Below are positions 1 through 42,848 of a DNA stretch of 64,000 bases, piece by piece; the first letter of the stretch is position 1; each line of letters starts with the position of its first letter. Position numbers and translations under genes: made by a program. This DNA comes from an uncultured Gammaproteobacteria bacterium (GTDB taxonomy: Bacteria > Patescibacteriota > Microgenomatia > UBA10105 > UBA927). Location of the stretch: positions 5,857 through 69,856 of the forward strand of contig CAYIBX010000001.1 of assembly GCA_964361785.1 (NCBI GenBank). The letters run 5' to 3'. Below the pieces are notes generated by a model that saw nothing but the letters and a program-made list of their open reading frames with translations, had not been told where the DNA came from and did not search any database.

Positions 1-1
1 G

Positions 2-1132
2 TTGGCCTATAGGTCGATGATTATATTGAGAATAAGTGCCAGTGGAGAAAGAGCTCGCAATATCCTTATGTTGATAGTTTTGATGATTGTTGTTGTTGGT
101 ACGTCCGTTACTGCAATGGTTGATCGCAATCGTGTGGCTCCCGTGTGGGGAGTGCACGATATTATTCTGCAAGAAGAACAAGCATTACGATTCTTATTAC
201 AGGGAAAAAATCCGTACAAAGAGACCTACTTTGGCACTCCAGTTGAGTCATTTCACTACGCAGAGATAGATAATGAAAATGCTGTTAATCCTGCGCTCTA
301 TCATTTTGTAATGCCACCGTGGTATTTACTTTTTCCGTTTGGATTTTATGTGCTTGGTGTGAAATTATTAGGATTCTTTGATGCCCGTATGGCGCTTCTT
401 TTTTGCATGGTCGGATTACTATTGATTTTATGGAGGTGGATAAAAGATATAAATGTTAAGCGGCTTTCAGTGGTACTCGCTTCACTTTCACCATCAATCT
501 TTGATTATTTTATCGAAGGCAGGAGCGACGTGTTTGCATTTTTTTGGCTCCTTTTGTCGTTATATATATTGTCGTTAAAAAAACCAGCGATAGCTTCGTT
601 TGTTTTTGGTCTTGCGATCATGAGCAAGCAAACCATATGGATCGCGGTTCCTTTTTATTTTATGTATCTTTATGTCACAGAGGTCAGAAAAAGAAGCCGC
701 ATGTGGGTATCCGTTGTCGTTACCTGTCTTGTGTCGATGGGTCTTACACTCCCATTCTTATGGTGGGACGCGCGCGCGTTTATCGATAGTGTTTTCTTGT
801 ATCTCACCGGAGGTACCATCGGAAGTTATCCGGTATCAGGGTACGGGTTCAGTATGATACTTGTTAATGTTGGTATTATAAAAAATATCTACGACCCGTA
901 TCCATTTTATATCTATCAGGGTATGTTTGGATTGCCGCTTCTACTTTTACTTTTGCGCTGGGTCGTCAAAATACCAAAAATATCAACTGTCTTATTTTCA
1001 TACGGCACTTTTCTTTGGTTTTTTTGGTATATGAGTAGATACTTTAATAATAGTCACATAGGATACATATCACTTATTTTTTTGATTGCAGGAATGCTTT
1101 TTATGAATGAACGAGAAGCGAAAAAAATATGA
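2..1132 (+). CDS. Polytopic membrane protein, 5'-partial, possible GT-C-type glycosyltransferase (DUF2029/PimE-like guess)
   Basis: ORF open from the window edge. The protein is very hydrophobic with more than 8 predicted TM stretches. It ends in an ATGA overlap with the next gene and sits inside a glycosyltransferase operon. Confidence 0.45.
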   Translation: MAYRSMIILRISASGERARNILMLIVLMIVVVGTSVTAMVDRNRVAPVWGVHDIILQEEQALRFLLQGKNPYKETYFGTPVESFHYAEIDNENAVNPALYHFVMPPWYLLFPFGFYVLGVKLLGFFDARMALLFCMVGLLLILWRWIKDINVKRLSVVLASLSPSIFDYFIEGRSDVFAFFWLLLSLYILSLKKPAIASFVFGLAIMSKQTIWIAVPFYFMYLYVTEVRKRSRMWVSVVVTCLVSMGLTLPFLWWDARAFIDSVFLYLTGGTIGSYPVSGYGFSMILVNVGIIKNIYDPYPFYIYQGMFGLPLLLLLLRWVVKIPKISTVLFSYGTFLWFFWYMSRYFNNSHIGYISLIFLIAGMLFMNEREAKKI

Positions 1133-2733
1133 AAGTTAGCTATATCCTACTTGGGATTATTGTCGTTCTCGCAGCGTGGCTTAGACTAACAAATCTTACC
1201 TCTAATCCGCCAGCGCTTTCATGGGATGAAGTATCTATAGGCTACAACGCGAATACTATTTTATCTAAAGGTACTGATGAGCATGGTGTGCGATTTCCTC
1301 TTGGAGCTTTTGCCGGATTTGGTGATTACAAACCATCACTTCCTATTTATCTTACCGTTCCTTTTATCGCAGTTTTTGGTTTGTCTGATTTGGCAGTTCG
1401 GTTGCCCTCTTCCATTTTTGGCATACTGACGGTGTTGTTGATGTATTTTCTTGTGAAAGAATTATTCTCCAATCAAAGACTTGCTCTTTTAAGCGCCTTA
1501 TTTTTGGCTATCTCTCCGTGGCACATTATGCTCTCTAGAACTGGATTTGAAGCAAATATTGCAGCATTTTTTGTTACACTTGGCGTGTATCTTCTATTAG
1601 TTTCACGAAAGAATTCAAACGTATTGCCTTTCGCCTTTTTGCCATTCGTCTTAGGCATGTATACGTTTAATTCAGCACGGTATGCAGGACCTCTTATCGC
1701 TTTTGGAGTGCTCTGTTTTTCGTGGGGTGCAATTTCGAAAGCGAAAACTTCTCTTTATAAAGGATTGATTATCGCAGCAATTGCTTTACTGCCGCTTATG
1801 CCGCATCTTGTTTCGAAAGAAGCCAGACTTCGGTTTCAAGAGGTAAGTATTTTTACAGATCTTCAAGTCATACTTACTTCAAACCAACGAAGTCTGGTAG
1901 ATGGAAATTCGTGGTGGTCCAAAGTCGTTGACAACAGGCGATTTGGATATGGCAGAGAATATCTTGTGCATTTTTTGGATAACGTAGAACCTCGATTTCT
2001 TTTTATCAAAGGGGATGGAAATCCTAAATTTTCTATTCAGGATACAGGACAATTACTGCTTGTTACCGCCCCGTTTATTTTTATCGGATGGTTAGCGCTT
2101 TTTGCGCGTCAGCCGAAAATAGCAGGATTGCTTCTTTTTTGGCTGTTGGCTTCCATTGCACCAGCAGCAGTTGCTCGTGAAACGCCACATGCTCTTCGGG
2201 TGGAAAATGGATTGCCGGTATGGATCATCATTACGGCATACGGATATGTACAGTTTCTGAGTATGTTTGCCGGCAAAAAGCTGCGGTTATTCGTTGGTAT
2301 TGTCATGGTTCTTTTAGTGCTTGGAAACTTTGGTTATTTTTGGCATACGTATACGACACATTATAAAAAAGAATATTCAGGCGAATGGCAATATGGGTAC
2401 AAAGAAGCTATTGAGTATAGCGAGAGTGTGAAAGAAAAGTATGACGTGATAGTACTCACAGAGAGCCTCGGCCGGCCATATATCTACACGCTTTTTTATG
2501 GAAAGTATGACCTTTCATTTTTCCAAACCACTAAAGATGCCTCGTTTGATAAAGAGGGATTTTATAATGTTTATCGGTTTGGCAAATATCGATTTGTACG
2601 ACACATAAACGAGAAGTATGAGGGTCGCGTGCTCTATATACTCCCAATAAACGAAGTCCCAGAGAATGCAAAAGTCTTAAAAAACATTTCGCTATTAAAT
2701 GGCTTTATCGGGCTTGTGATATTTGAGTTATAA
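1129..2733 (+). CDS. GT39-family (PMT/ArnT-like) polyprenyl-phosphate-sugar-dependent membrane glycosyltransferase, paralog 1
   Basis: 534 aa multi-TM protein. N-terminal loop has 'WDEVSIGYNANT...GTDEHG' (DE motif), then 'ISPWH' and 'ARETPHALR', which are typical of GT39/PMT. It is the first of three tandem paralogs. Confidence 0.7.
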   Translation: MKVSYILLGIIVVLAAWLRLTNLTSNPPALSWDEVSIGYNANTILSKGTDEHGVRFPLGAFAGFGDYKPSLPIYLTVPFIAVFGLSDLAVRLPSSIFGILTVLLMYFLVKELFSNQRLALLSALFLAISPWHIMLSRTGFEANIAAFFVTLGVYLLLVSRKNSNVLPFAFLPFVLGMYTFNSARYAGPLIAFGVLCFSWGAISKAKTSLYKGLIIAAIALLPLMPHLVSKEARLRFQEVSIFTDLQVILTSNQRSLVDGNSWWSKVVDNRRFGYGREYLVHFLDNVEPRFLFIKGDGNPKFSIQDTGQLLLVTAPFIFIGWLALFARQPKIAGLLLFWLLASIAPAAVARETPHALRVENGLPVWIIITAYGYVQFLSMFAGKKLRLFVGIVMVLLVLGNFGYFWHTYTTHYKKEYSGEWQYGYKEAIEYSESVKEKYDVIVLTESLGRPYIYTLFYGKYDLSFFQTTKDASFDKEGFYNVYRFGKYRFVRHINEKYEGRVLYILPINEVPENAKVLKNISLLNGFIGLVIFEL

Positions 2734-2735
2734 CA

Positions 2736-4361
2736 ATGAAAAAAACATTATTGCTCGGATCAATTCTAATTCTTGCTGCGGTGCTGCGATTTTGGCAGTT
2801 AGGCGCCGTGCCGCCAAGTCCTGATTGGGATGAAGCAGCATTAGGGTACAACGCGTATTCACTGCTTACTACTGGCCGCGATGAGTATGGTACGCATTGG
2901 CCACTTGCTTTACGATCATTTGATGATTATAAGCCTCCGCTCTATGCATATTTAGCAATACCATCCATTAAAGTTTTTGGTCTTTCTCTTTTTTCCGTGA
3001 GACTGCCTGCCGCAATTATGGGTGTTTTAGGCGTCTTGGGGACATATTTTTTAGTGACCTTTTTGTTTAAAAATTTGACACTTGGACTTTTGAGCGCGAT
3101 TCTTTTGGCCATATCGCCATGGCATTTACAATTTTCGCGTATCGCATTTGAAGCAAATGTTGGGGTGACCCTCAATATTTGGGGCATGTATTTTCTTTTT
3201 AAGTCTTTAAACAATGGCAAGGTGATGCCAATTTCTGCTTTTATTTTAGGACTCGGGTTTTACGCGTATCATAGTGAGAGAGTATTTATACCCCTTTTTA
3301 TTCTTTTGGTGTTCGTGTTGTTTAGTAAGAAGTTTTTCGCAAAGTGGAAATATTTTTTAGTATCTCTCGGAGTAGGTGCTATTATCGTCGCTCCATTATT
3401 TCCCATTGTTTTCGGAAACAATGGCCTTACCCGGCTGAAAGGAACCAGTAGCCTTTCCGATCAGACGGGTCTACTTTCTAAAAGTGTAGCTAGGTTAGAA
3501 GACGATGTAATACGCGGGGATTTATTTGGCGCCATGTGGGAAAACAGACGCTTGGTGTATGTCAAGACTATTGCAGATGGATACCTCTCACATTTTTCTC
3601 TCAAATGGTTGTTTTTGACGGGGGACAATGGGCGACATCATGCGCCTGATATGGGCCTTATGTATCTTTGGGAATTGCCATTTTTTCTTTGGGGCATGGT
3701 GGAGGTGTTTAAACGCGGCGGTGTCAATGCAAAATTACTTTTTGGATGGCTTCTGTTAGTCCCTGTCGCTGCATCTGTCACTTCAGAGACTCCTCATGCG
3801 ATACGAACACTTGTAGCACTGCCTTTGCCGCAAATTTTTACTGCTTTTGGTCTCTTTAGCGTCTATATCAATTTTATGAAGAAGATAAAAAATCTTACAA
3901 AGAATATGCGTGTGGTTGTTTTCGCTATTTTCGTTTTTAGTTTTTTGGCTTTAGTATTTAACATCGGTTATTACTTTCATATGTACTACTCGCACATGAA
4001 CATCGAGTATTCTCAAGTTTGGCAATATGGATACAAACAAGCAGTCGAATACACAGAGGCGCATAAATCAAAGTATAAGAAGATAGTTGTGTCTACGAAA
4101 TTAGAACAACCGCACATGTTCTATTTATTTTTTATGAAATATGATCCCAGCTTCTATTTAGCTGGAGGCGGCACGGCGTCGGGTGGATTTGCCGAGGTGA
4201 GAAACAGATTTGATGTGTATGAATTTCGGCCTATTCACTGGCCGAATGAATTGCACGACGGCTCGATTTTGTATGTAGGAACACCGCGGGAAATTCTTAC
4301 AGATCCCATATACAGAATTTCATTTCTTAATGGGTTCGAGGCGATACGAATTGCAGAGTAA
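2736..4361 (+). CDS. GT39-family membrane glycosyltransferase, paralog 2
   Basis: 541 aa. Shares 'DWDEAALGYNAYS...GRDEYG', 'ISPWH' and 'SETPHAIR' with its neighbours. Confidence 0.7.
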   Translation: MKKTLLLGSILILAAVLRFWQLGAVPPSPDWDEAALGYNAYSLLTTGRDEYGTHWPLALRSFDDYKPPLYAYLAIPSIKVFGLSLFSVRLPAAIMGVLGVLGTYFLVTFLFKNLTLGLLSAILLAISPWHLQFSRIAFEANVGVTLNIWGMYFLFKSLNNGKVMPISAFILGLGFYAYHSERVFIPLFILLVFVLFSKKFFAKWKYFLVSLGVGAIIVAPLFPIVFGNNGLTRLKGTSSLSDQTGLLSKSVARLEDDVIRGDLFGAMWENRRLVYVKTIADGYLSHFSLKWLFLTGDNGRHHAPDMGLMYLWELPFFLWGMVEVFKRGGVNAKLLFGWLLLVPVAASVTSETPHAIRTLVALPLPQIFTAFGLFSVYINFMKKIKNLTKNMRVVVFAIFVFSFLALVFNIGYYFHMYYSHMNIEYSQVWQYGYKQAVEYTEAHKSKYKKIVVSTKLEQPHMFYLFFMKYDPSFYLAGGGTASGGFAEVRNRFDVYEFRPIHWPNELHDGSILYVGTPREILTDPIYRISFLNGFEAIRIAE

Positions 4362-4366
4362 AAGGC

Positions 4367-6010
4367 ATGTCTATGTTTAATCGTACATATTTAGGTTTCA
4401 CGTTCATTTTACTTTTTGCAGCGTTTTTGCGGCTTTATGCATTGGCTTTCGTGCCGCCTTCACCTTCTCTTGATGAAGTTTCCATAGGCTACAACGCATA
4501 TTCCATACTTACGACGGGCAAAGATGAGTATGGGTATAGATTGCCGCTTCTTCTTCGCGCGTATGATGATTGGCGCCCTGCGCTGTACGTATACATGGTC
4601 ATCCCGTTTGTAAAATTAATGGGTCTTTCATCTTTAGCTGTTCGATTTCCGTCTATAATTTTGTCGCTTTTTGCTGTGTATCTGATGTTTCGTCTCGGCA
4701 AACTTTTTTCGCGGTTTAACAGTCGATTACGATACTTAGGTGAGGCGGCATCGTTTTTTATAGCAATATCGCCGTGGCATATTTATATTTCCCGTTTAGG
4801 ACATGAAGCGAATTTAGGATTTACGTTAACGCTTGCGGGAGTGTATGCACTGTGTGTGTTTATTATAGAAAAAAAACAATGGTATCTTTTGTGGGCATCA
4901 ATATTGTTTGGCGCCTCACTTCATGGGTACCAAAGTCAAAAAGTTATTACACCAATTCTTCTTATAGCATTTGGCGCAATGTATTGGAAAGAATGCGTAA
5001 AACATATAAAAGCGGCGTGTCTATCAGTATGTGTATTTCTTCTTATTGTACTTCCTGCCGTGTATGTAACGGTTACCGGAGAGGGATTGAGCAGGCTTAA
5101 AGGTACGAGTGCATTCTCTGTCGATGCCCCAGTGTACACACAAGCGTTTCAAGCCTTACAAATTGCAAAAAGTTCTAACGACGTTATAGGAAAGATAATA
5201 AATAATCATAAAGTAGTTATGGCAAGAGTTTTTACCAATAATTACTTTTCTCATTTTGCCCCACCATGGTTATTTATGGGAAGCGAACGGGAAGCTCATA
5301 AAGTGCCGAATATGGGCCTTTTGTATTCATGGGAATTGGTAAGTGTACTTGTGGGGCTTATTTATCTTATTGTTTTTAGCAGTATAGATTTTCGTGTATT
5401 GCTTTTTTTATTGGTGTGGGGACTTTCAGGCCCATTGCCCGCCGCGATTACAACCCAAGCTCCACACGCCATGCGTAGCTTTACATGGCTTCCTCCATTG
5501 GCGCTTATCAGCGCTATTGGTGTGTTGGAATTATGGTATGTCGCAAGAAAAATTACATGGACGCGCTGGATTATCGTAGGAGGAATTATTTTATTAAGCC
5601 TCATGCAATTTGGAAAAGGGTATTTTATAACGTTTCCTCGTACACAATCAGATTCGTTTCAGTATGCCATGAAAGATACGATGGCTTTTGTACAGGGAAC
5701 GAAAAATGAATATAAACAAATTGTCTTTTCAAATAACAGCAATTTGTATCAGTCGTATATGTTTTATCTTTTTTATACCTCGTTTGATCCTAGCCGTTAT
5801 CAAACGCTCGGCGGCAGTGTGTCAGGCGGATATGACAAGCCGCATACGATTAAGAATTTTGAATTTCGCTCAATAAACTGGTCTACAGAAGTGCTCAAAG
5901 CTGATACGCTGTATATTACTGATAGTAAAGAGGCGCCTACGCGAAAACGCGTGGTAAATATATTTAAGAATCTTGACGGGAAAGAAGCAATTATTGCATT
6001 TACCTTATGA
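4367..6010 (+). CDS. GT39-family membrane glycosyltransferase, paralog 3
   Basis: 547 aa. Carries 'LDEVSIGYNAYS...GKDEYG', 'ISPWH' and 'TQAPHAMR'. Its stop overlaps the next start (ATGA). Confidence 0.7.
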   Translation: MSMFNRTYLGFTFILLFAAFLRLYALAFVPPSPSLDEVSIGYNAYSILTTGKDEYGYRLPLLLRAYDDWRPALYVYMVIPFVKLMGLSSLAVRFPSIILSLFAVYLMFRLGKLFSRFNSRLRYLGEAASFFIAISPWHIYISRLGHEANLGFTLTLAGVYALCVFIIEKKQWYLLWASILFGASLHGYQSQKVITPILLIAFGAMYWKECVKHIKAACLSVCVFLLIVLPAVYVTVTGEGLSRLKGTSAFSVDAPVYTQAFQALQIAKSSNDVIGKIINNHKVVMARVFTNNYFSHFAPPWLFMGSEREAHKVPNMGLLYSWELVSVLVGLIYLIVFSSIDFRVLLFLLVWGLSGPLPAAITTQAPHAMRSFTWLPPLALISAIGVLELWYVARKITWTRWIIVGGIILLSLMQFGKGYFITFPRTQSDSFQYAMKDTMAFVQGTKNEYKQIVFSNNSNLYQSYMFYLFYTSFDPSRYQTLGGSVSGGYDKPHTIKNFEFRSINWSTEVLKADTLYITDSKEAPTRKRVVNIFKNLDGKEAIIAFTL

Positions 6011-7530
6011 AAAATTTTCATCACCGAAATACGCGCCGGTATGTACTACTACTTATTATCATTATCCTCATTGGATTATTGCCAAGAGCGGTAGAGATCT
6101 TAAGCGGTAATTTTCTCTTTGGGTACGATATGGGACTGTTTTTTGAGAAGGTTAAACGTATTGTCGTTGATCATACGTTTACACTCATCGGTGAAGAGGT
6201 TGGCGGGAGGGGAGGATTTTTTCAAGGTCCGGGATTTTATTATCTTTTGGCTATTCCATTTTTCTTATCCGGTGGTGATCCGTATAGCGGGATGGTGCTG
6301 ATGTTTTTGACTGGATCAGCAACACTTATTCTGACAGCGGTGCTTGCCGCTCGGGCCTTGGGATGGATAGAGGCGTTGTTTATTGTTTTTCTTATGGCTG
6401 TTTCGCCTGCGATGGTGGCGCAATCCCGCTTTATATGGAATCCTTTTTTTATCCCATTGATAACCGTTGGCGTATTATTTCTTTTTTATGAAGTTCTCAA
6501 AAAGAAAGAAATTACGCTTCCAGCACTATTTTTGAGTCTTTCAATGATGTTTCATTTTGAAATAGCTACGGGCATTATGATGTTTTTGGAATTTTCTATC
6601 TTCACCGCGTATCTATGGCGTGTGCGCATGGTGCGTGGAAGGTATGTATTGGCTGCGTATGCAGCATTTTTCCTATCTCAAATTCATTTTGTTTTGTTTG
6701 ATTTGCGTCACGACTTTCTTATCACCAAAGGTATTCTAGCCACGGCATTTGGCAAAGATCCCTCTTCCCACAATGTTACCTTGTTATACGCACAGCGTAT
6801 GATTGAGAATCACTGGGATGTGTTTCGGTATAATTTTTTATCTACTTTCGCGTATTCAAATGTAATTTGGCCGGTGTTACTCGTGTTGGTCGGGGTTGGT
6901 GCATATGCCATGATACGGGATAAGCATGTAGATGATGCGCATAAAAAGTTTCTTGTATTTTTGTGTATTTCGCCAATTGTTATGTTTGTTTTATATATGA
7001 AATATCTTTGGCCGATGTGGGAGTGGTGGTTATTGGAGCTGGGTGTTGTTTATATATTTGTGGTTGGACTCGTTTTTTCATGGGGGTGGAAGCGAGGTAG
7101 CATATGGAGGGGAATTGTCGCTATACTTACATGCTTGTTTCTTTTTTCGCATATAAACTCAACGATTCAGTTTTATCGATTAGACTATCACGATTATGGC
7201 GGCACGCATAAAATTCGAGGAAAAATAGATGCTATAGATTCAATCTACCAAGATGCAGCCGGTAAACCATTTAATCTTCTTGTATTTACGCCGCCCGTAT
7301 ATACATATCCGTATGATTATTTATTTTGGTGGCATGGAAAGAGAAAATACGGGTATGTACCAACAAAAGAAAAAAAAGATACGTTCTATCTTCTTATTGA
7401 GCCAGATCCACAAAAGCCATGGAGTTATGAAGGCTGGCTTGAGACAGTTATTAAAACCGGCACAGTAGAGAAAACTTGGAAATTACCGAGCGGATTTATT
7501 ATTGAAAAAAGAGTGGAGATGTCTCCATGA
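6007..7530 (+). CDS. Polytopic membrane protein, putative GT-C-type glycosyltransferase
   Basis: 507 aa with more than 10 hydrophobic segments. It is in operonic overlap with the GT39 genes upstream and the YfhO-like gene downstream. Confidence 0.45.
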   Translation: MKNFHHRNTRRYVLLLIIIILIGLLPRAVEILSGNFLFGYDMGLFFEKVKRIVVDHTFTLIGEEVGGRGGFFQGPGFYYLLAIPFFLSGGDPYSGMVLMFLTGSATLILTAVLAARALGWIEALFIVFLMAVSPAMVAQSRFIWNPFFIPLITVGVLFLFYEVLKKKEITLPALFLSLSMMFHFEIATGIMMFLEFSIFTAYLWRVRMVRGRYVLAAYAAFFLSQIHFVLFDLRHDFLITKGILATAFGKDPSSHNVTLLYAQRMIENHWDVFRYNFLSTFAYSNVIWPVLLVLVGVGAYAMIRDKHVDDAHKKFLVFLCISPIVMFVLYMKYLWPMWEWWLLELGVVYIFVVGLVFSWGWKRGSIWRGIVAILTCLFLFSHINSTIQFYRLDYHDYGGTHKIRGKIDAIDSIYQDAAGKPFNLLVFTPPVYTYPYDYLFWWHGKRKYGYVPTKEKKDTFYLLIEPDPQKPWSYEGWLETVIKTGTVEKTWKLPSGFIIEKRVEMSP

Positions 7531-9149
7531 AGAAACTATCTTTTAACTGGTTTATCTGGCTTATACTTCTTATTGTTTCGCTACTACCTCTTTTTGACTT
7601 GTTTAATTCAGGATTGCCCATAACGCATGATGGCAAAGATCATGTCGCAAGGATTGCCAATTTTTATCAATCTCTTTCTGAAGGTAACTTTGTTCCGCGA
7701 TGGGCTGGTAACCTTAACTGGGGATATGGGCATCCGGTGATGATGTTTTTGTATCCGTTGCCCTCTTATATTGCGTCAGCGTTTCATGTAATCGGATTTT
7801 CATTGGTCGATAGTGTCAAGCTTGTTTTTGCATTTGGATTTATTGCAAGTGTTGTATCTATGTATCTGTTTGCCTCATATCGTTTTGGCTATTTAGCTGG
7901 GATTCTTGCAGCATTGCTCTATGGTTTTGCTCCTTACAGGTTTGTGGATATGTATGTGCGCGGGGCAATTGGTGAACATATGGCGTTTATTTTCCTGCCA
8001 CTTGTTCTTTTAGGTTTATGGCAATCATCTATCGTTCTCATCGCAATGAGTATGGCCTTTTTACTTCTTTCTCATAATGCGGTGAGCTTGATGATGCTTC
8101 CTATCATAGCAGTATTTGTGGTGTACCTACTGGTTTTTGAGTCGAAGCGAAAACGGGAATTTCTTTTTAGATCTCTGACCGGTTTAATCCTAGGATTTGT
8201 CTTGTCTGCATTTTTTTGGTTGCCGGCCTATATGGAAGGCAAATACACACTGCGAGACATAGTAACCAAAGGCGAATTTACTTCACGGTTTGTTAATGTA
8301 GCTGATTTTTTCAACCCTACTTGGGGATATGGCACGGCAAATGAAATATCAAAGTTTTTGGGGTTTTCAAACATTTTTATTTTATTGTTAGCTCTGGTTC
8401 TTTTTCATTCGATGAGAAAGCCGTCAAAAGTACTGATTGGCGGCGCGTTGCTTTATACAATAGTATCTCTCGTATTAATGACTAATGTATCAGCGCCTGT
8501 TTGGCAGATAGTTTCGCTCATTCAGAAATTTCAGTTTCCGTGGAGGTTTTTACATGTCACGACGTTTCTGATTCCTATCATCGGGGCAGTTGTTGTTTCA
8601 CATATTGACATCAAGCGAAGGTTAAAAGTTGTCATAGTTTTTTCTGTTATCGCTATTATCGGTAGTTTTTCGATGTGGCATGCAAGAGATTACGTATCGA
8701 TGTCTGACAGTAATTTTACCGGTATGTATAATGGCACTACGGATACAGGAGAGAGCTCACCGATCTGGTCTATTCGTTTTATGGAAACGAAAGCCAAAGC
8801 TCCTATCGAAGTGATCAGCGGAAAAGGCGTGTCGATCTTTGTTGGCCCACGAAGGAGCACACATCATTCATATCGTGTCTTTTCGTTAGAATCTACGAAG
8901 CTTGTAGAAAATACACTCTATTTTCCCAATTGGGAGGTGTTTGTAGATAAAACACCTGTCCCTATAGAATTTCAAAATCCTAACTATCGTGGCTTACTGA
9001 CATTTGATGTCCCTGCAGGGGATCATGCAGTTGATGTTGTGTTTACGGACACCAAGCTTCGTATATTGGCCAATTGGATTTCAATCGGAGGATTTATGCT
9101 CACAATTGGGTTTCTTGTTACAATGCGATTATGGCAAAAAAGAACGTAA
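7527..9149 (+). CDS. YfhO-like GT-C membrane glycosyltransferase, paralog A
   Basis: 540 aa multi-TM protein with N-terminal 'HDGKDHVARI...PRWAGNLNWGYGHP', 'FVDMYVRGAIGE', and a C-terminal extracytoplasmic beta-domain ending 'YFPNWEVFVDKTPV'. This tail resembles the YfhO family tail 'PGWKAYVDGK'. Paralog of 11556..13202. Confidence 0.55.
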   Translation: MKKLSFNWFIWLILLIVSLLPLFDLFNSGLPITHDGKDHVARIANFYQSLSEGNFVPRWAGNLNWGYGHPVMMFLYPLPSYIASAFHVIGFSLVDSVKLVFAFGFIASVVSMYLFASYRFGYLAGILAALLYGFAPYRFVDMYVRGAIGEHMAFIFLPLVLLGLWQSSIVLIAMSMAFLLLSHNAVSLMMLPIIAVFVVYLLVFESKRKREFLFRSLTGLILGFVLSAFFWLPAYMEGKYTLRDIVTKGEFTSRFVNVADFFNPTWGYGTANEISKFLGFSNIFILLLALVLFHSMRKPSKVLIGGALLYTIVSLVLMTNVSAPVWQIVSLIQKFQFPWRFLHVTTFLIPIIGAVVVSHIDIKRRLKVVIVFSVIAIIGSFSMWHARDYVSMSDSNFTGMYNGTTDTGESSPIWSIRFMETKAKAPIEVISGKGVSIFVGPRRSTHHSYRVFSLESTKLVENTLYFPNWEVFVDKTPVPIEFQNPNYRGLLTFDVPAGDHAVDVVFTDTKLRILANWISIGGFMLTIGFLVTMRLWQKRT

Positions 9150-9901
9150 CCATTTCTGTAGCAATTGCGACGCACAATGAAGCTGTCAAACTCGGGGACT
9201 GTTTGTCTTCAGTAGCATCGTGGGCAGATGAACTAGTGGTTGTTGATGGCGGATCAGTAGATGGAACGCCTGAGATAGCAAAGCGGTTTGGCGCTATCGT
9301 ATACAAACGGGATAACCCACCTATGTTTCATATAAATAAACAGTATGCCATAAATGCGTGTAGGTGTGATTGGATATTACAGTTAGATGCAGATGAGATT
9401 ATAAGCCCAAAGCTTCGAGGCGAAATTCAGTCAGTAATAAAGAAAAAGAATACAAATATTGGGTATCAAATGCCCAGAAAAAATTTCTTCATTGGTAAGT
9501 GGCTTTCCAAAGGAGGGCAGTATCCTGATTATCTTGTGCGTTTGTTTAAAAGGGGTAAAGGTATATTGCCTTGTAAGTCAGTACATGAGCAGATTGTCAT
9601 AGATGGAGAGATCGGAACGCTTACAGAACCACTCCTTCACTATACCAACAACACGCTCGAAGAGTATTGGGCAAAAGCGGATACGTATACGTCGCTTACA
9701 GCTCTAGATTTGCGAAAGATGTATAAAACCCCAACGCTTAATTTATTGTTATCGTATTGTTTGATTAAACCGATTGTTACATTTTTTTCGATCTATCTTC
9801 GACACAAGGGGTTTGTCGATGGATGGCAGGGCATGCAATTTGCACTATTTTCAAGCCTTCACTTTCCTATGGCATACAAAAAGTTTAGAGCGTTACGATG
9901 A
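9131..9901 (+). CDS. Family 2 glycosyltransferase
   Basis: 'MAKKNVTISVAIATHNEAVKL...VVVDGGSVDGT' shows a GT-A fold with DxD-type motifs. The start is chosen at the internal ATG, not the extended ORF 9074. Confidence 0.75.
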   Translation: MAKKNVTISVAIATHNEAVKLGDCLSSVASWADELVVVDGGSVDGTPEIAKRFGAIVYKRDNPPMFHINKQYAINACRCDWILQLDADEIISPKLRGEIQSVIKKKNTNIGYQMPRKNFFIGKWLSKGGQYPDYLVRLFKRGKGILPCKSVHEQIVIDGEIGTLTEPLLHYTNNTLEEYWAKADTYTSLTALDLRKMYKTPTLNLLLSYCLIKPIVTFFSIYLRHKGFVDGWQGMQFALFSSLHFPMAYKKFRALR

Positions 9902-9902
9902 C

Positions 9903-10433
9903 ATGAAATATATTGTTTCTATACTTCTTTTTGCAATAGTCATTTTTACTCCCGCACGTGTACATGCTGAATACGTATTGCCATATCCATCATTCATGCC
10001 CGGAAATAAAATTTATAGAGTGTCAAGAATGTTTGATCAGCTGAAACGATATTGGAGTTTTGGCAGTATTGCGCAAACAAAATATACCATGAATATGGCA
10101 GATAAATATCTTGTTGAGGCAAAGACGCTATTTGAGTACAAACAGTATTTATTGGCTTTTGACGCATTAGACCGGTCTGACAAGGAGATTGTGAAATTAT
10201 CAAAACAAGTTCAGAGTGGCATTGAAGAAAAGAAAAATATGTCGCTCGTTGTCGAATCTATAAAAGAAGAGATGAGCGTTCACGAGATGTTACTTACAAA
10301 GCTCCAAAAAGAAATGCCATCAGAGTTTATATGGACGCCGGAAAAGCAAGCTTCTACCGTATTATCCATTCGTGAGAGGTTGATGATATCTATAAAACTT
10401 CGTCAAGATATACGCGTGAGTATGAATGAGTAA
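9903..10433 (+). CDS. Secreted hypothetical protein with predicted coiled-coil
   Basis: 'MKYIVSILLFAIVIFTPARVHA' signal peptide at an internal ATG of ORF 9774..10433. The rest is K/E-rich and helical. Confidence 0.5.
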   Translation: MKYIVSILLFAIVIFTPARVHAEYVLPYPSFMPGNKIYRVSRMFDQLKRYWSFGSIAQTKYTMNMADKYLVEAKTLFEYKQYLLAFDALDRSDKEIVKLSKQVQSGIEEKKNMSLVVESIKEEMSVHEMLLTKLQKEMPSEFIWTPEKQASTVLSIRERLMISIKLRQDIRVSMNE

Positions 10434-11559
10434 TATGAAAGCAATACTTGTTTGGTATGTAGTAGTGGGATGTTTATTCTCACTTTTTTCATTTGGGTTC
10501 GTTGATCCGAATTTTAGTATTTCGACTCATCCATTGGCATTATCTATCCTCAATCCCTTGATTCATATCGTGTATAAAACACCGATTATAGCTGCGACTC
10601 TGTATACATTGTTTGTTATCATTTTTTTTATCTTGTATGCATTGATTATTAGGATAAAGACGCTCCTGACACTAAAAACATATTGGAAATTTTTGTTATT
10701 GCTAAGTATTATCTTTTTTCTATCCTATCCTTCATTATCTCATGACATATTCAACTATATCCTTAGCGCAAAAGTGGCATATTTTTATCGAGAAAATCCC
10801 TATCTTGTAATGCCGACAGAACTTCTTGGTGAGCCGATGCTCGGGTTTACGAGAGCCGCCAATAAGCTTGCGCTATACGGGCCAGTGTGGATACTTGCTA
10901 CGTGGATTCCGTATGTACTTTCTTTTGGTAATGTATTGGTCGCGTTGTATACCTTTAAACTATTGGTGATCACCTCATATGTGACGATATGTATTCTCAT
11001 ATATAAAATGACCAAGGATGTGCGTCGAGTCCTATTTTTTGCATGTAATCCACTTGTGATTATCGAAACATTTGTTTCCGGTCACAACGATACGTTCATG
11101 ATGGCGCTTGTTCTCTATGGAATATATCTTTGCAGGAGCAATCAATTATTCGCGCAAATTGCAGGATGGGGTTTTATGACTGCATCAGTATTAGTAAAGG
11201 GTGCAACTATTGTTTTATTGCCGCTTTTTGTATTTTTCCGAACTTTGTCAGACGAAAAACTATTTTTTTGGGCTAGCGTGTGTAGTTTCGGTGTCTTTTT
11301 ACTGACGCCACTTCGCGAAGAACTGTATCCGTGGTACGCCATATGGTTTCTTGTATTTGTATCACTGTTGCCTATGGGCAAAAGATCCTTTATTCATGGA
11401 GCCGCGTATATGTTAAGCTTTGGATTAATGCTGCGGTATTTGCCGTGGATAGCGACGCGAGAATATGGCGGCACAGGTCCGATGATACGGCTTTTTGTGA
11501 CATGGGTGCCGTTGGCTTGTTATAGTTTTTGGTATAAAATTTTTGTGAACAAACGATGA
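10426..11559 (+). CDS. Polytopic membrane protein, possible GT-C/DUF2029-like
   Basis: 377 aa with about 10 TM segments. It lies between the two YfhO-like paralogs. Confidence 0.45.
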   Translation: MSNMKAILVWYVVVGCLFSLFSFGFVDPNFSISTHPLALSILNPLIHIVYKTPIIAATLYTLFVIIFFILYALIIRIKTLLTLKTYWKFLLLLSIIFFLSYPSLSHDIFNYILSAKVAYFYRENPYLVMPTELLGEPMLGFTRAANKLALYGPVWILATWIPYVLSFGNVLVALYTFKLLVITSYVTICILIYKMTKDVRRVLFFACNPLVIIETFVSGHNDTFMMALVLYGIYLCRSNQLFAQIAGWGFMTASVLVKGATIVLLPLFVFFRTLSDEKLFFWASVCSFGVFLLTPLREELYPWYAIWFLVFVSLLPMGKRSFIHGAAYMLSFGLMLRYLPWIATREYGGTGPMIRLFVTWVPLACYSFWYKIFVNKR

Positions 11560-13202
11560 AATTTTTATTGCTCGCGCTTATTCCGGCAATATTTGCATCG
11601 CAATGGCTTTTTGGTGCTCGATTTATCCCGACGCATGACGGAGAGTATCATATTATTCGTTTCTGGCAGTTTTATAAGATGTTGTCTCAAGGGTATGTAT
11701 TTCCTCGATGGGCGCCTGATTTAAATAGTGGATACGGCTTACCGCTTTTTCTTTTTCATTATCCATTCCCTAACTATATAGGAAGTTTATTCCATGCATT
11801 GGGCGCGACGTTTGTCGACACCGTGAAGCTCACACTTGCGTTGGGGTATCTTATCGCTATTGTGTGGTGCTTTTTGTGGCTTAGAAAAGTATTTGGAAAT
11901 ATACCAGCGCTTATCGGTACGATTATATGTTCCATGGTGCCGTATTGGTTTTTGGATATTTATGTACGGGGATCAGTGGGAGAGGTGTGGGCGCTTTCTT
12001 TTGTACTATTAACCCTTGCAGCGTTAGAATATGGTGTTTCCTTTGGTGTAGCAATAGGGATAGCCGGTATTATAGTAAGTCACAATATTACAGCACTCAT
12101 ATTTATTCCAATTATTTTTTTGTATGCGTGGTATCGCAAACGAGGCAACATCTTAGCAATCGCTACAGGAATTGGATTAGCAACGTATTTTTGGCTGCCG
12201 GCACTTGTTGAGAGTCGTTTCATGGTGGGTTTAAATAGTGTTTCGTATGCTGATCATTTTCCGGATCTTTTTCAGCTGCTCTTCCCATCGTGGGGAACGG
12301 GATTTTCGGGTGTAGGGATTACAGCTGATGAGATGTCGTATCAAATTGGCATCGTGCCGCTTCTTGTATTATGTATCAGTTTTTTTATGGCTATGAGAAA
12401 GAAAGTATTACGAGCAATAATTTTTCCCGTTCTTTGTGTGACAGCAATTGCAATTTTTGGTATGACAGAGTACTCGTTGCCATTATGGCGATACGTGCCG
12501 CTTATGGGCAATATTCAGTATCCATGGAGATTATTGATGGTTACCACCATTGCCACTGGGTATCTTGGAGCGCTTCTTACTGCAGTGACACCACGATGGA
12601 TTATGGTAGGGTTCACTGTTCTGGCTTTTATAGCAAGTTTTTCCTACATGAAACCAGTGACGTATGAAAAACGGGATGATGCACATTACCTTTCTCGGCG
12701 AGAGTTTACCGATGGCACATCATCTCTCGGTAATTCTTTTTCTACAATCTGGACAGAATGGAAAAAAGAGCGGTTTTCTACAAGGTTTCAAGCGAGTACT
12801 GGGGATGCCATTATAAATTTGTACAAAGAGACCCCACTTTCATATGAGATGACTATCAATGCGAAAACAGAGATCACTGTTTCAGCGCAGATACTCTATT
12901 TTCCGGGGTGGAAAGCGTACGTTGACGGTAAAGAAACAACCATCTCCTACCAAACTGACGGTATTATCCATGTGAACATGCCAGTTGGTGAGCATGAGCT
13001 TCGCATTAAATTTACAGAGACGCCCTTGCAACTATTTGCCGACGGCATATCACTACTCAGTTTGTTCTCTTTGTTAGCTTTCGGTATACTTAAAGGTACT
13101 CATGCGTATCGCAATAAGTTCAGCACCCCTTTCAAGCGGCCACAAAACACGGGGAGTGGGCGTATATACCCGAGAACTCATCAACGCACTCAAAAAAAAT
13201 AA
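11556..13202 (+). CDS. YfhO-like GT-C membrane glycosyltransferase, paralog B
   Basis: 'HDGEYHIIRF...PRWAPDLNSGYGLP', 'FLDIYVRGSVGE', and a C-terminal 'YFPGWKAYVDGKET'. Collinear with 7527..9149. The basic tail overlaps the next gene by 100 nt. Confidence 0.55.
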   Translation: MKFLLLALIPAIFASQWLFGARFIPTHDGEYHIIRFWQFYKMLSQGYVFPRWAPDLNSGYGLPLFLFHYPFPNYIGSLFHALGATFVDTVKLTLALGYLIAIVWCFLWLRKVFGNIPALIGTIICSMVPYWFLDIYVRGSVGEVWALSFVLLTLAALEYGVSFGVAIGIAGIIVSHNITALIFIPIIFLYAWYRKRGNILAIATGIGLATYFWLPALVESRFMVGLNSVSYADHFPDLFQLLFPSWGTGFSGVGITADEMSYQIGIVPLLVLCISFFMAMRKKVLRAIIFPVLCVTAIAIFGMTEYSLPLWRYVPLMGNIQYPWRLLMVTTIATGYLGALLTAVTPRWIMVGFTVLAFIASFSYMKPVTYEKRDDAHYLSRREFTDGTSSLGNSFSTIWTEWKKERFSTRFQASTGDAIINLYKETPLSYEMTINAKTEITVSAQILYFPGWKAYVDGKETTISYQTDGIIHVNMPVGEHELRIKFTETPLQLFADGISLLSLFSLLAFGILKGTHAYRNKFSTPFKRPQNTGSGRIYPRTHQRTQKK

Positions 13203-14163
13203 TACCGTTTCCATCCACGAATTTTCTAGCTTTCGTGATATTCCAAAAGAAGTAGACCTTGTTCACTTCACAAATTTTGATCCATTTTTTTTGACACTTC
13301 CATTTATTTTCAACAAACCATTTGTAGTGACGGTGCATGACCTTACGCCGCTCGTGTTTCCGGAGCATTTTCCCAGAGGAATTCGCGGTGAGTTGAAGTG
13401 GCAAATACAAAAATGGAATATATCCCCCGCCGCAAGGATTATTACCGATAGTATTATTTCAAAAAATGATGTCGTAAACATATTGCGTAGACCTGCAGAT
13501 ACAATTGATGTAGTGCCGTTAGCATCAAGCAGTGCGTTTATAAAACCTATTAGCACCGATGCCGTGAAACGCGTGGCAAAAAAGTATGCACCCCCCAAAC
13601 GATTTGCAATGTACGTAGGGGACGTCAATTGGAACAAAAATATTCTTGGACTTCTCAACGCGTGGCAAATTCTGGTTGCGAAAGGTGCGATGCGATTCGG
13701 CGAGAAGCTGTTTCTAGTGGGACAAGCTTTTTTGGGTGATTCAACGGAAGCGAAAACTATTGATACCTATGTTAAAAAATTTCATCTTGAATCATCTATA
13801 GAGAGAGTAGGTCAAGTATCGGATGATGATTTGCCTGCGTTTCTTTCTCAAGCGAGTGTGTGTGTACTTCCATCGTATTATGAAGGATTTGGATTGCCGG
13901 TTCTTGAGGCGATGTCTGCAGGTACGGTGGTGATCGCGACACATGGCGGGAGCTTGAAAGAAATTGCTGGCCCATCACTCATTTGTGATCCGGATGACAA
14001 CGAAAGCATTGCTCGAAAGATAGAAGAAGCATTTTCACTGTCCCAATCAAAACGGGAAGAATTGATACGTGAGGGTCATGCGTGGGCGAAGAAATTTAGT
14101 TGGGATCGTGCAGCTTGCGAAACAATAGCCGTGTATAATACCGTAATTAACCCTTCGATATAA
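13102..14163 (+). CDS. Family 4 (GT-B) glycosyltransferase
   Basis: 'MRIAISSAP...GVGVYTREL' N-terminus and the 'EGFGLPVLEAMSAGTVVIA' motif. Confidence 0.8.
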   Translation: MRIAISSAPLSSGHKTRGVGVYTRELINALKKNNTVSIHEFSSFRDIPKEVDLVHFTNFDPFFLTLPFIFNKPFVVTVHDLTPLVFPEHFPRGIRGELKWQIQKWNISPAARIITDSIISKNDVVNILRRPADTIDVVPLASSSAFIKPISTDAVKRVAKKYAPPKRFAMYVGDVNWNKNILGLLNAWQILVAKGAMRFGEKLFLVGQAFLGDSTEAKTIDTYVKKFHLESSIERVGQVSDDDLPAFLSQASVCVLPSYYEGFGLPVLEAMSAGTVVIATHGGSLKEIAGPSLICDPDDNESIARKIEEAFSLSQSKREELIREGHAWAKKFSWDRAACETIAVYNTVINPSI

Positions 14164-14196: not shown

Positions 14197-14225
14197 TTGA
14201 CAGGTAGGCAATACGAGTATATACT
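14197..14225 (+). promoter_or_regulatory. Sigma70-like promoter (TTGACA-17 nt-TATACT) abutting the ATG at 14232
   Basis: Direct read: ttgaca(14197-14202), ggtaggcaatacgagta(17), tatact(14220-14225). It sits in the only sizable intergenic gap of the first 33 kb. Confidence 0.5.
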
Positions 14226-14231
14226 GCAACT

Positions 14232-15593
14232 ATGGATAGAGAAGTGTGTCAAACGTTAATTTCGACATGGAACCCTCACTTTACTGATCCTTTGAAAGGT
14301 AAATGGATACATACTGTGCCTCGAGAGAAGTATCTTGAGCGCCTCAAAAAACTTCTGGATATTCGTCATGTGTTGATACTTACTGGTGTTCGTCGTGCAG
14401 GGAAATCAACACTGATGCATCAGCTTATGGAGCATCTTATCGTTGAGAAAGGCATACCGGCCAAAAACGTGGTGTATTTGTTTTTGGAGGATATATTGGT
14501 GCAGCAGTATTTGACACAAGGCTGGAAACTCTTGGAAGATATTTTTATCTATTATATGGAGACTTACAACCCGCAAGGGAAAGTTTATATATTTTTGGAT
14601 GAAATTCAAGGAATTAAAGACTTCAATCGTTGGATAAGCAGTAAGTATGAGCGGAAAGATCCTGTTAAGTTTATACTTTCCGGATCACGCCGATCGTTGG
14701 TTGAGTCAGAGTCGGCGACAGTTTTGACCGGCAGAAACGTTCAAGTAGACGTCTACCCCTTTAACTTTTATGAATATTTGCGCATAAAAGGAATTACTAT
14801 AGAAGGGCAAGCGAATATATCATCGATTCTCAAGGCTAATTTCTCCCAACAAACGAAAATTTTACATCACTTGGGGAATTATATGAAAGAAGGCGGGTAT
14901 CCTGAGATAGTGCTTACCGAAGATGAAGATGTCAAACGGACATTGGCATCAAATTATTTTAGAGATACGGTTTCAAGAGACGTTGTGGTGCCCAATGGTG
15001 TTCGAAATCAGCAGGAAGTAGAAGTATTAGGACTTCAGATTATGTCTGATTTTACAAAAACGCATACATACAGTAGTTTATCTCGATCGCAGAAACTCTC
15101 TTTAGAGACTACCAAGTCCTACATCGAGTATTTTCAGCGGGCATATTTACTCTTTGAGAGTAAGCATTATTCGTATAAAACGAAGGAGACGCAGGATGTG
15201 CAAAGAGCCCGAAAGATGTACGTAGTCGATAATGGACTGCGAAATTTTAACGTGCCGCTTTTACGGCCTGATATCGGGCAATGTGCGGAAAATGTAGTAT
15301 ACATGGAGTTAAAAAAACAATCGCAGGCGATTTACTATTGGAAAGGCAAAAAAGAGATAGATTTTGTGACTATGGATCCTGCGTTGGCTTTTTATAATGT
15401 TTCATATACTGATCAGCCGCATGAGAGAGAAACACAGGGCATGGTAGAAGGATTGCAGGAGTTTAATAAGGAAAAAGGATATGTGTTGACGAAAAATTAT
15501 TCGGCTATACAAAAGATAGATGGAAAAACTTTGGAATTTATTCCGCTCTGGGCGTGGTTAGTCTTCCATGGTAAGGCATTTTTCAACGCATGA
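14232..15593 (+). CDS. AAA-type ATPase with DUF4143-like C-terminal domain
   Basis: Walker A 'GVRRAGKST'. Size and layout match the AAA_14 + DUF4143 family. It is unrelated to glycan synthesis and is preceded by its own promoter. Confidence 0.65.
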   Translation: MDREVCQTLISTWNPHFTDPLKGKWIHTVPREKYLERLKKLLDIRHVLILTGVRRAGKSTLMHQLMEHLIVEKGIPAKNVVYLFLEDILVQQYLTQGWKLLEDIFIYYMETYNPQGKVYIFLDEIQGIKDFNRWISSKYERKDPVKFILSGSRRSLVESESATVLTGRNVQVDVYPFNFYEYLRIKGITIEGQANISSILKANFSQQTKILHHLGNYMKEGGYPEIVLTEDEDVKRTLASNYFRDTVSRDVVVPNGVRNQQEVEVLGLQIMSDFTKTHTYSSLSRSQKLSLETTKSYIEYFQRAYLLFESKHYSYKTKETQDVQRARKMYVVDNGLRNFNVPLLRPDIGQCAENVVYMELKKQSQAIYYWKGKKEIDFVTMDPALAFYNVSYTDQPHERETQGMVEGLQEFNKEKGYVLTKNYSAIQKIDGKTLEFIPLWAWLVFHGKAFFNA

Positions 15594-42031: not shown

Positions 42032-42314
42032 TCCTTTATTGCAGCTTACAGATTACTATGACTCTGCTCTTATTTATAAACCGAATGTTTTTTTCGTTGT
42101 ATCTCCAGTATTCATAATCATGTTGTTGTATTGGTTAGTGCGACGCATGAGTGACGTTATCATGTTTGTGCGCTATATCATTTCGTCAAAATCCTCGAAA
42201 CTGAATGCTCGGTATCGTTGGTTTAAAAATGTATACTTACAAGCTCAAAAGCAATACAAACGTATAATAAAAAAGATTGCTGATGAGATTTTACTTCCGG
42301 AGGATGAAGCATGA
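42024..42314 (+). CDS. Small membrane protein, hypothetical
   Basis: 96 aa, one TM segment, operonic overlaps. Confidence 0.35.
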   Translation: MFNPLLQLTDYYDSALIYKPNVFFVVSPVFIIMLLYWLVRRMSDVIMFVRYIISSKSSKLNARYRWFKNVYLQAQKQYKRIIKKIADEILLPEDEA

Positions 42315-42805: not shown

Positions 42806-42848
42806 AGCGAGAACACACAATAATTATGAGAATAATCATTTGAAGCCA

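Follow-up and report, generated by a model that had tools for sequence, protein, structure and literature searches.

Gene content and packing of the array

The window studied here, the whole stretch of 64,000 nucleotides from contig CAYIBX010000001.1 (GenBank assembly GCA_964361785.1, forward strand, positions 5,857 to 69,856), begins with an array of genes predicted to encode membrane glycosyltransferases of the GT-C fold class (GT-Cs). Bases 2 to 13202 form a single dense plus-strand gene run of ten open reading frames (ORFs), followed by a GT4 gene. Eight of the products are polytopic membrane proteins, and GT-C genes cover 90% of bases 1 to 13202. Judged from their sequences, all eight are of GT-C type: B, C, D, and the divergent E resemble PMT_2/ArnT, F and J resemble YfhO/PTPS_related, and A and I resemble GT87/MptA_B. 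The genes of the run are as follows (the Pfam PMT_2 cut-off is 26.1 bits).

2 to 1132, plus strand: A, GT87/MptA_B-like GT-C candidate (C-terminal 376 amino acids [aa]; the full gene, 422 aa, begins 137 bp before the window)
1129 to 2733, plus strand: B, PMT/PMT_2-type GT-C, 534 aa (PMT_2, 42.7 bits; PMT, 41.7 bits)
2736 to 4361, plus strand: C, PMT_2-type GT-C, 541 aa (PMT_2, 54.7 bits)
4367 to 6010, plus strand: D, PMT_2-type GT-C, 547 aa (PMT_2, 29.0 bits)
6007 to 7530, plus strand: E, divergent PMT_2-like GT-C, 507 aa, without a Pfam match of its own
7527 to 9149, plus strand: F, YfhO/PTPS_related-type GT-C, 540 aa (PTPS_related, 59.3 bits; YfhO, 41.3 bits; both above cut-off)
9131 to 9901, plus strand: G, GT2 protein (GT-A), GmaR/SunS type, 256 aa, with a C-terminal hydrophobic helix (Glycos_transf_2, 64.9 bits)
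9903 to 10433, plus strand: H, DUF5667 protein, 176 aa, with an N-terminal signal or anchor (DUF5667, 31.9 bits)
10426 to 11559, plus strand: I, MptA_B/GT87-like GT-C, 377 aa (precomputed PF26314 MptA_B_family match)
11556 to 13202, plus strand: J, YfhO/PTPS_related-type GT-C, 548 aa, paralog of F (YfhO C terminus only, 26.0 bits against a cut-off of 28.5)
13156 to 14163, plus strand: GT4 cytoplasmic glycosyltransferase (Glycos_transf_1, 99 bits), overlapping the end of J by 47 nt

From A through the GT4 gene, neighboring genes either overlap (by 4 to 47 nt) or leave gaps of no more than 5 nt, a spacing by which they appear packed like one operon. A scan for promoters and terminators gave no enrichment (48 versus 55 ± 8.7 and 20 versus 17 ± 3.9, respectively), so gene spacing is the sole basis for this operon structure. 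An earlier note on this DNA had counted seven GT-C genes in 12 kb (B, C, D, E, F, I, and J). Their ORF coordinates were exact and all seven hold up, but the count was too low, as A is a further candidate, and the GT2 and DUF5667 genes also lie within the run.

The array continues beyond the window. Three genes lie directly upstream on the opposite strand, and a fourth follows directly past the window end, after a Wzy_C-like gene.

Directly upstream, opposite strand: PMT, 545 aa, GT-C candidate (PMT PF02366, 32 bits)
Directly upstream, opposite strand: YfhO, 784 aa, GT-C candidate (66.9 bits)
Directly upstream, opposite strand: PTPS_related protein, 542 aa, GT-C candidate
Directly past the window end: further PMT_2 gene, 488 aa, GT-C candidate

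In total the contig holds 15 GT-C candidates, of which 11 are adjacent genes. The upstream minus-strand block (PMT, YfhO, and PTPS_related) and gene A are divergent and 41 bp apart (L001, 5678 to 5720), and a control region common to both, if any, must be very compact.

The window sequence matches part of the 113-kb contig JBBUKA010000001.1 (GCA_038054585.1), which carries a Patescibacteria label and comes from 0.1- to 0.2-µm filtered Hainich groundwater. The nearest relatives are metagenome-assembled genomes (MAGs) of Candidatus Gottesmanbacteria. The host, from Hainich groundwater, belongs to the Microgenomates (Candidate Phyla Radiation/Patescibacteria) and is Gottesmanbacteria-like. Many array-bearing MAG records are titled "uncultured Gammaproteobacteria" (L010, L014, L016, L021 to L026, and others); these titles look like generic mislabels, as gene content and best matches are of Microgenomates type.

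Fold, divergence, and conservation of the GT-C proteins

AlphaFold2 models were built from family alignments for C (pLDDT 80, pTM 0.83) and F (pLDDT 81, pTM 0.84). All significant PDB matches of the C model were GT-C structures (STT3, AglB, PglB, ArnT, ALG12, Pmt4, AftA, and DPY19), as were all those of the F model (AftD, STT3, ALG12, ArnT, PglB, EmbC, and AftA/B), at a probability of 1.00 and TM-scores of 0.4 to 0.55. PDB sequence searches with single GT-C proteins or with family profiles gave nothing significant (best match, ArnT; E = 0.38), so the GT-C proteins were linked to solved structures by fold comparison only. The other members of the array are connected by Pfam or hhalign and are likewise predicted to be GT-C enzymes. 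The earlier note had placed the group among enzymes that use lipid-linked sugars. This class is borne out by the Pfam matches and by the folds of C and F, with use of such a donor suggested by the class itself and by the nearby genes P and N (described below). A transporter identity was rejected, as transporter folds reached TM-scores of only ~0.1 with the two models.

An Asp follows shortly after the first membrane helix in 14 of the 14 candidates read (all but the PMT_2 gene past the window). A loop-1 acidic residue is invariant in six family alignments (D32/E33, D41, D35, D70, D99, and D107). By family, the invariant residues are D32 and E33 in C; D41 in E; H34, D35, G36, and H39 in F; H98 and D99 in A; D107 in I; and a loop-1 GGD in the family of K, one of the outlying proteins described below. 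From the N-terminal Lys residues and the first membrane helix, we infer that the loop-1 Asp faces the extracytoplasmic side.

The three PMT_2-type paralogs are well separated in sequence. Pairwise BLAST identity was 38% over 544 aa between B and C (E = 6e-99), 33% between C and D (E = 1e-93), and 30% between B and D (E = 1e-59), a relatedness well outside what chance would give. Loop 1 carries SWDE in B, DWDE in C, and SLDE in D, with the DE pair invariant across 17 sequences. Of the motifs quoted in the earlier note, the DE loop and SPWH are common to all three proteins and ETPHA.R occurs in B (ETPHALR) and C, but D reads QAPHAMR. The label GT39 given there proved too specific. B matches PMT PF02366 at 41.7 bits over model positions 2 to 155 of 245 only, and C and D match generic PMT_2 alone, without PF02366. 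The C model is also closer to oligosaccharyltransferases and ArnT than to PMTs: Pmt4 ranked 20th (E = 9.5e-4, TM-score 0.44), behind STT3/AglB/PglB (E = 1e-8 to 1e-5) and ArnT (5ezm; TM-score 0.54 in both directions, E = 5.5e-6). The Asp-Glu pair in loop 1 of B, C, and D is not specific to GT39, as ArnT-like enzymes too have loop-1 acidic residues.

We compared the divergence of B, C, and D using 69, 89, and 18 orthologs, respectively. Residues 21 to 140, the catalytic N-terminal module with loop 1 and the SPWH region, had a consensus identity of 0.57 to 0.72 between the paralogs. Across residues 141 to 300, identity was 0.08 to 0.47 between paralogs versus 0.46 to 0.74 within each orthogroup. 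At 27 positions the residue was group specific (kept within the B, C, and D orthogroups and differing between them), and several of these positions adjoin the DE pair. A shared first part combined with an orthogroup-specific second part is the pattern expected for distinct specificities. It fits, without proving, a common chemistry with different substrate recognition. The suggestion of distinct specificities in the earlier note thus gains some footing from residues 141 to 300, and its view of B, C, and D as diverged proteins is sustained by the same region and by paralog identities of 29 to 38%, values that rule out a recent near-identical duplication.

Three members of the array, E, I, and A, have no Pfam match above threshold. 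PF13231 was found in many of the 570 homologs of E, and the E family profile is related to the B/C/D profile (hhalign probability, 95.6%; E = 1.3e-8), which identifies E as a predicted fourth, divergent PMT_2-type protein. For I, the PF26314 match was a precomputed one, and the model gave no match in the Pfam scan run here. A scored 19 bits against GT87, below the 25-bit cut-off; its ortholog in L007 matches GT87. The A family is related to the I family (hhalign probability, 95.4%; E = 1.9e-8) and to the PMT_2 family (78%; E = 1.8e-5), and hhalign detected no relation between the I family and the PMT_2 profile. E and I, listed in the earlier note as two further GT-C-like proteins, therefore retain that status, E through its hhalign relation to B/C/D and I through PF26314.

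F and J are paralogs, as had been proposed: they share 31% identity over 520 aa (E = 1e-74), and J is a full-length counterpart of F. Both contain PRWA..LN.GYG.P. The loop-1 motif previously given for the pair, HDG.DH, is found in F (THDGKDH) but reads HDGEYH in J (THDGEYH), and the tail motif is YFPGWKAYVDGKET in J and YFPNWEVFVDKT in F. Two smaller genes stand between them. G overlaps the end of F by 19 nt, and its family profile matches the catalytic domain of GmaR over the whole domain (positions 6 to 196; E = 7e-27) as well as SunS, while only the generic first ~100 residues match DPMS and GtrB. The profile thus favors the GmaR/SunS type, and G was rejected as a CsbB-type donor synthase for F. 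Since GmaR and SunS glycosylate proteins or peptides, some link of the array to protein glycosylation is possible by analogy. The DUF5667 protein H has a second, secreted DUF5667-like relative in the window (42311 to 42805, plus strand; 22% identical to H over 99 aa, E = 1e-8) directly upstream of K, so that each of the two genes directly precedes a GT-C gene. One might speculate that DUF5667 proteins act as acceptor-recognition partners.

The array is not confined to this genome. A scan of one genome per species recovered at least 587 relatives, and synteny was read from the best 80 loci, the ORFs of which were classified against the proteins of the window. Among these 80, the loci with an informative taxon label belong to Gottesman-, Woese-, Levy-, Curtiss-, Roizman-, and Chisholmbacteria MAGs. 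For C there are more than 4000 homologs, and its orthologs in Gottesmanbacteria and other Patescibacteria are ~60% identical to it. The recurrent gene order is B C [D] [E] F G [H I J] GT4 [P N Q]. B and C are adjacent in 73 of the 80 loci, F and G in 33, G and H in 27, H and I in 27, and I and J in 22; the GT4 gene comes after J or G in 32. Within 10 kb on either side of the C ortholog, 50 full-length loci hold 4 to 11 GT-C genes (median, 8), which occupy 59% of bases. The paralogs are 29 to 38% identical, versus 40 to 62% for orthologs in other orders; as paralogs are less alike than orthologs across orders, the duplications predate the radiation of the group. The array is ancient, lineage-wide, and syntenic across Microgenomates-type MAGs. 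The "expansion" described in the earlier note is therefore not peculiar to one genome, and the density called unusual there, although real (eight GT-C genes on 90% of bases 1 to 13202), is the norm within the Microgenomates lineage.

Donor supply and neighboring glycan genes

Downstream of the GT4 gene, the window encodes candidates for the supply of lipid-linked donors.

15590 to 16342, plus strand: P, DPM1/AglJ-like GT2, 250 aa, no membrane helix; candidate polyprenyl-phosphate sugar synthase (donor maker)
16339 to 17589, plus strand: N, divergent Wzx/MOP-type flippase candidate, 416 aa, ~11 membrane helices, overlapping P by 4 nt
17576 to 18379, plus strand: Q, second GT2, polyprenyl-phosphate-sugar-synthase-like, 267 aa (NCBIfam PpgS, 38 bits over the full length; ArnC)

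The best PDB matches of P were the Pyrococcus Dol-P-Man synthase (E = 7.9e-20, full catalytic domain), ArnC, and GtrB. Its top NCBIfam matches were AglJ (121 bits), Dol-P hexose transferase, ArnC, PgfS, and PpgS, all below equivalog cut-offs. Polysacc_synt and Polysacc_synt_3 were matched by 11 of 12 aligned members of the N family (best E = 1.6e-15 and 3.3e-19, respectively), the exception being N itself. Q is 29% identical to P and adjoins N in 9 loci. P-like genes adjoin YfhO-like genes in 34 loci, and in the loci of Levy-, Curtiss-, and Chisholmbacteria the array opens with a long YfhO-like gene that has one or two P-like genes next to it. The order J-GT4-P-N is kept in L018, L021, and L023. 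In the window, the P and N pair lies 2.4 kb downstream of J, and P, the N family gene, and the GT-C genes fall within 18 kb on the same strand. A candidate synthase, a candidate flippase, and GT-Cs thus appear to be encoded together at this locus. No CsbB/GtrB-type synthase was found directly beside F; the DPM1-like synthase lies 2.4 kb downstream of J.

An AAA_14/DUF4143 ATPase gene (14232 to 15593, plus strand) lies between the GT4 gene and P. It looks inserted, because L018, L021, and L023 have J-GT4-P-N without it. A strong promoter-like site (TTGACA-17-TATACT, at 14197 to 14225) lies before this gene, inside the sole sizeable gap (68 nt).

Farther downstream, three large membrane proteins form an outlying group.

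42756 to 45284, plus strand: K, probable AftD/YfhO-like GT-C, 842 aa, ~10 hydrophobic helices, no Pfam match
45970 to 49578, plus strand: L, paralog of K, 1202 aa (36 to 37% identical to K over ~600 to 640 aa, E = 1e-110), no Pfam match
49575 to 51566, plus strand: M, MmpA/AftD-N-terminal-like polytopic protein, 663 aa, no Pfam match (NCBIfam MmpA, 51.6 bits, E = 5.6e-14, below cut-off)

K has 1148 homologs among 50%-identity representatives, in two size classes of ~800 and ~1200 aa, and its family is related to the F/J family (hhalign probability, 83%; E = 9e-6). M is weakly similar to L (E = 1.9e-4), and MmpA is reported to be homologous to the N-terminal region of AftD (PMC8698533). K and L are, from these sequence relations, probable AftD/YfhO-like relatives, and M is a weaker candidate. 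Some K homologs are fused to methyltransferase or CBM_4_9 domains. Between K and L lie two small paralogous membrane proteins (45281 to 45613 and 45626 to 45973, plus strand; 110 and 115 aa; 33% identical, E = 1e-19) that belong to no assigned family.

Sugar-nucleotide and glycosyltransferase genes crowd the remainder of the window. A Wzy_C-like protein of 993 aa begins at 61947, runs to 63998, and continues past the window end (plus strand; 29.9 bits, below threshold); a PMT_2-like C-terminal module considered for it was unsupported (probability, 0.6%). In the continuation past the window end (L091, 10842 to 20867), this gene is followed by the PMT_2 gene listed above, three GT4 genes, one GT2 gene, a ManC-type GDP-mannose gene, and a Bac_transf initiating transferase, so that the glycan region reaches far past the window. 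Between 33788 and 42031 (plus strand) lie genes for a cupin, a thiamine-diphosphate enzyme (604 aa), a 2-hydroxyacid dehydrogenase, a HAD hydrolase, an epimerase, two FkbM methyltransferases, and a strong DegT-family enzyme (311 bits), a set that suggests synthesis of a branched or heavily modified deoxy-sugar. Precomputed Pfam matches place a nucleotidyltransferase/HepT-like toxin-antitoxin pair (96 and 112 aa; ~55865 to 56490, plus strand) among the sugar genes. A 194-aa ORF (58760 to 59344, plus strand) with an N-terminal Glyco_transf_4 domain only, directly upstream of a complete GT4 gene (59354 to 60484), may be a split or truncated glycosyltransferase.

Interpretation and comparison with known systems

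We consider it reasonably probable that the run is the core of an ancient GT-C array whose products transfer lipid-linked sugars onto a cell-surface glycoconjugate. At the cytoplasmic face, P (perhaps also Q) would move a sugar from a nucleotide sugar to polyprenyl phosphate; N, as a Wzx-type flippase, or another flippase would carry the lipid-linked sugars to the outer face; and there each GT-C, through its first-loop Asp, would add a sugar at a different position or to a different acceptor. The likeliest acceptor is a secondary wall polymer or lipoglycan produced by the Wzx/Wzy-type genes around the array. The analysis establishes the family and fold assignments, the conserved acidic residues, the ancient paralogy, the synteny, and the placement near the synthase-like and flippase-like genes; the lipid-linked donors, distinct specificities, acceptor, and order of action are all inferred.

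Several observations weigh against this reading. Enzyme activity, donor, and acceptor cannot be read from sequence. The YfhO-like and PMT_2-like profiles are unrelated by hhalign (probability, 5.5%), so the term GT-C joins both families at the fold level only, and K, L, and M stand on weaker footing than the rest (the 83% hhalign relation and the subthreshold MmpA match). On the donor side, the GT2 conserved within the array (G) is of GmaR/SunS rather than CsbB/GtrB/DPM1 type, so the classic adjacent pair of synthase and GT-C is not seen for F and G. P has no membrane helices and no GacJ-like partner was identified, N itself has no Pfam or PDB match and is assigned as a flippase through its orthologs only, and the window yielded no flippase of GtrA type. 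The usual substrates of Wzx proteins are oligosaccharides linked to a diphosphate rather than single sugars on a monophosphate.

One alternative, raised in the earlier note, is stepwise protein O-glycosylation, in which B, the upstream PMT, and perhaps C, D, and E would mannosylate Ser/Thr residues of secreted proteins such as S-layer proteins or pilins, with the other GT-Cs extending the chain. Actinobacterial Ppm1 and Pmt act in this way, and the mannose would come, as it does there, from polyprenyl-phosphate-mannose. B and the upstream PMT match the true PMT model PF02366 (41.7 and 32 bits), but C and D match generic PMT_2 only, and the C model is nearer to oligosaccharyltransferases and ArnT (E = 1e-8 to 1e-6) than to Pmt4 (E = 9.5e-4). 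The invariant DE pair in loop 1, the DPM1-like synthase with a ManC-type GDP-mannose gene nearby, and the membership of G in the GmaR/SunS group, in which the members with solved structures act on proteins or peptides as glycosyltransferases, would all suit such a system. A Ser/Thr/Pro-rich secreted acceptor, which the earlier note had proposed to look for elsewhere in the genome, was not found in the window, where the scan returned spurious antisense ORFs only. The neighbors are of polysaccharide type (Wzx-like, Wzy_C-like, GT4/GT2, and a Bac_transf gene just past the window), and the characterized PMT_2 GT-Cs of Gram-positive bacteria (GtlB, GacL, CsdD/F, and GtsC) modify polymers, not proteins (PMC8035078). 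Protein O-glycosylation is thus possible in principle but not favored, and we regard it as unlikely.

A second alternative is de novo extracytoplasmic assembly, in which successive GT-Cs would join lipid-phosphate single sugars into the greater part of a lipoglycan or wall polysaccharide. This is how lipomannan, lipoarabinomannan, and arabinogalactan arise in mycobacteria, through the MptA/MptB/PimE, Emb, and Aft enzymes. The locus combines the mycobacterial families (GT87/MptA_B-like A and I; AftD/MmpA-like proteins, namely, the F model, K/L, and M; PMT-like; and Ppm1/DPM1-like), its gene order is strictly conserved, and it holds at least two synthase-like GT2s (P and Q). Yet a full cytoplasmic route, normally the maker of the backbone, is encoded alongside (many GT4/GT2 genes, Wzx-like, Wzy_C-like, and Bac_transf), no genes for synthesis of a lipid anchor (e.g., of PIM type) were seen in the window, and family resemblance does not fix the reaction catalyzed. 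We rate this as a slightly slimmer prospect than protein O-glycosylation. A bolder proposal, also unlikely in our judgment, is that the main envelope glycan of the Microgenomates is built largely outside the cell, by at least 11 collinear GT-Cs acting in sequence on polyprenyl-phosphate single sugars, much as in the mycobacterial arabinogalactan and lipoarabinomannan pathways, with DUF5667 proteins and the GmaR-type GT2 as recognition or priming subunits. Extracytoplasmic glycan assembly, if true, would be the first such pathway outside Actinobacteria and, for a major group of ultra-small bacteria, a trait that defines the envelope.

It is improbable that some members (K, L, M, and perhaps E or J) are nonenzymatic GT-C-fold scaffolds or lipid handlers comparable to Corynebacterium MmpA: M has as its best family match MmpA, which is described as lacking a recognizable catalytic domain and being needed for trehalose-lipid transport (PMC8698533), and K and L have no Pfam match, but the early loop-1 Asp is present in every candidate and invariant in six aligned families (M having no family alignment), orthologs are kept across orders, and Patescibacteria have no mycolate pathway.

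Under the favored reading, transfer of lipid-linked sugars onto a surface glycoconjugate, the array is probably old shared machinery for a sugar-coated cell surface. Patescibacteria have genomes of ~1 Mb, are currently understood to rely on contact with other cells, and have an envelope chemistry about which very little has been learned. About 20 kb of the genome is spent on the array of 11 GT-Cs, and the surrounding glycan-synthesis region exceeds 75 kb. The same gene order across several candidate orders implies a complex and specific surface glycan that is important to these organisms. The array supplies targets for glycan analysis, for the interpretation of cryo-tomography, and for the biochemistry of uncharacterized subfamilies of GT-C enzymes, namely, those of E and of K/L/M and the short PTPS_related type.

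The closest parallels are the Gram-positive multicomponent systems, which pair a GT-A lipid-phosphate-sugar synthase, a GtrA- or Wzx-type flippase, and a YfhO- or PMT_2-type GT-C (PMC8035078). The same three roles as in CsbB-GtcA-YfhO, GtlA-GtlB, and GacI/J-GacK-GacL are filled here, by homology, by P, N, and the YfhO/PMT_2 GT-Cs; N is of Wzx type like GacK, and P lacks membrane helices like GacI. The differences are that synthase and GT-C are not paired one to one here, that the GT2 within the array is of GmaR/SunS type, and that neither a GtrA-type flippase nor a GacJ-like partner was found. There are also 11 adjacent GT-Cs here, versus the three GT-A/GT-C pairs listed for each of Bacillus subtilis and Lactococcus lactis (PMC8035078).

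The actinobacterial set (Ppm1 with Pmt, PimE, MptA/MptB, Emb, and AftA to AftD) shares with the locus the PMT-like, GT87/MptA_B-like, AftD-like, and DPM1/Ppm1-like families. Identity to the solved enzymes is only 10 to 15% in fold alignments, and the window gives no sign of a mycobacterial-type envelope. The number of GT-Cs per genome looks comparable, but mycobacterial GT-C genes are mostly scattered, whereas here they form one conserved array.

The ArnC/ArnT pathway, which transfers L-Ara4N from undecaprenyl phosphate to lipid A (GT83), is resembled in the ArnT-like size of B, C, and D (~540 aa), in the match of the C model to ArnT 5ezm (TM-score, 0.54), and in the likeness of P to ArnC. The score against the NCBIfam ArnT equivalog is 15.9 bits against a cut-off of 567. 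Patescibacteria are not known to make lipid A, so the ArnT acceptor should be absent. With the archaeal S-layer N-glycosylation system (AglJ/Dol-P-hexose), the locus shares the best NCBIfam match of P (AglJ, 121 bits, over the whole catalytic domain) and weak matches of B and E to the Agl23 family TIGR03663. All Agl scores are far below equivalog cut-offs, and similarity to oligosaccharyltransferases of AglB/STT3 type is at the fold level only, with no family match. In the literature searched, the coverage of which was incomplete, we found no description of the array. The best reading is that of a known type of system in an unusual form, with many GT-Cs gathered in one conserved collinear array typical of an ultra-small lineage.

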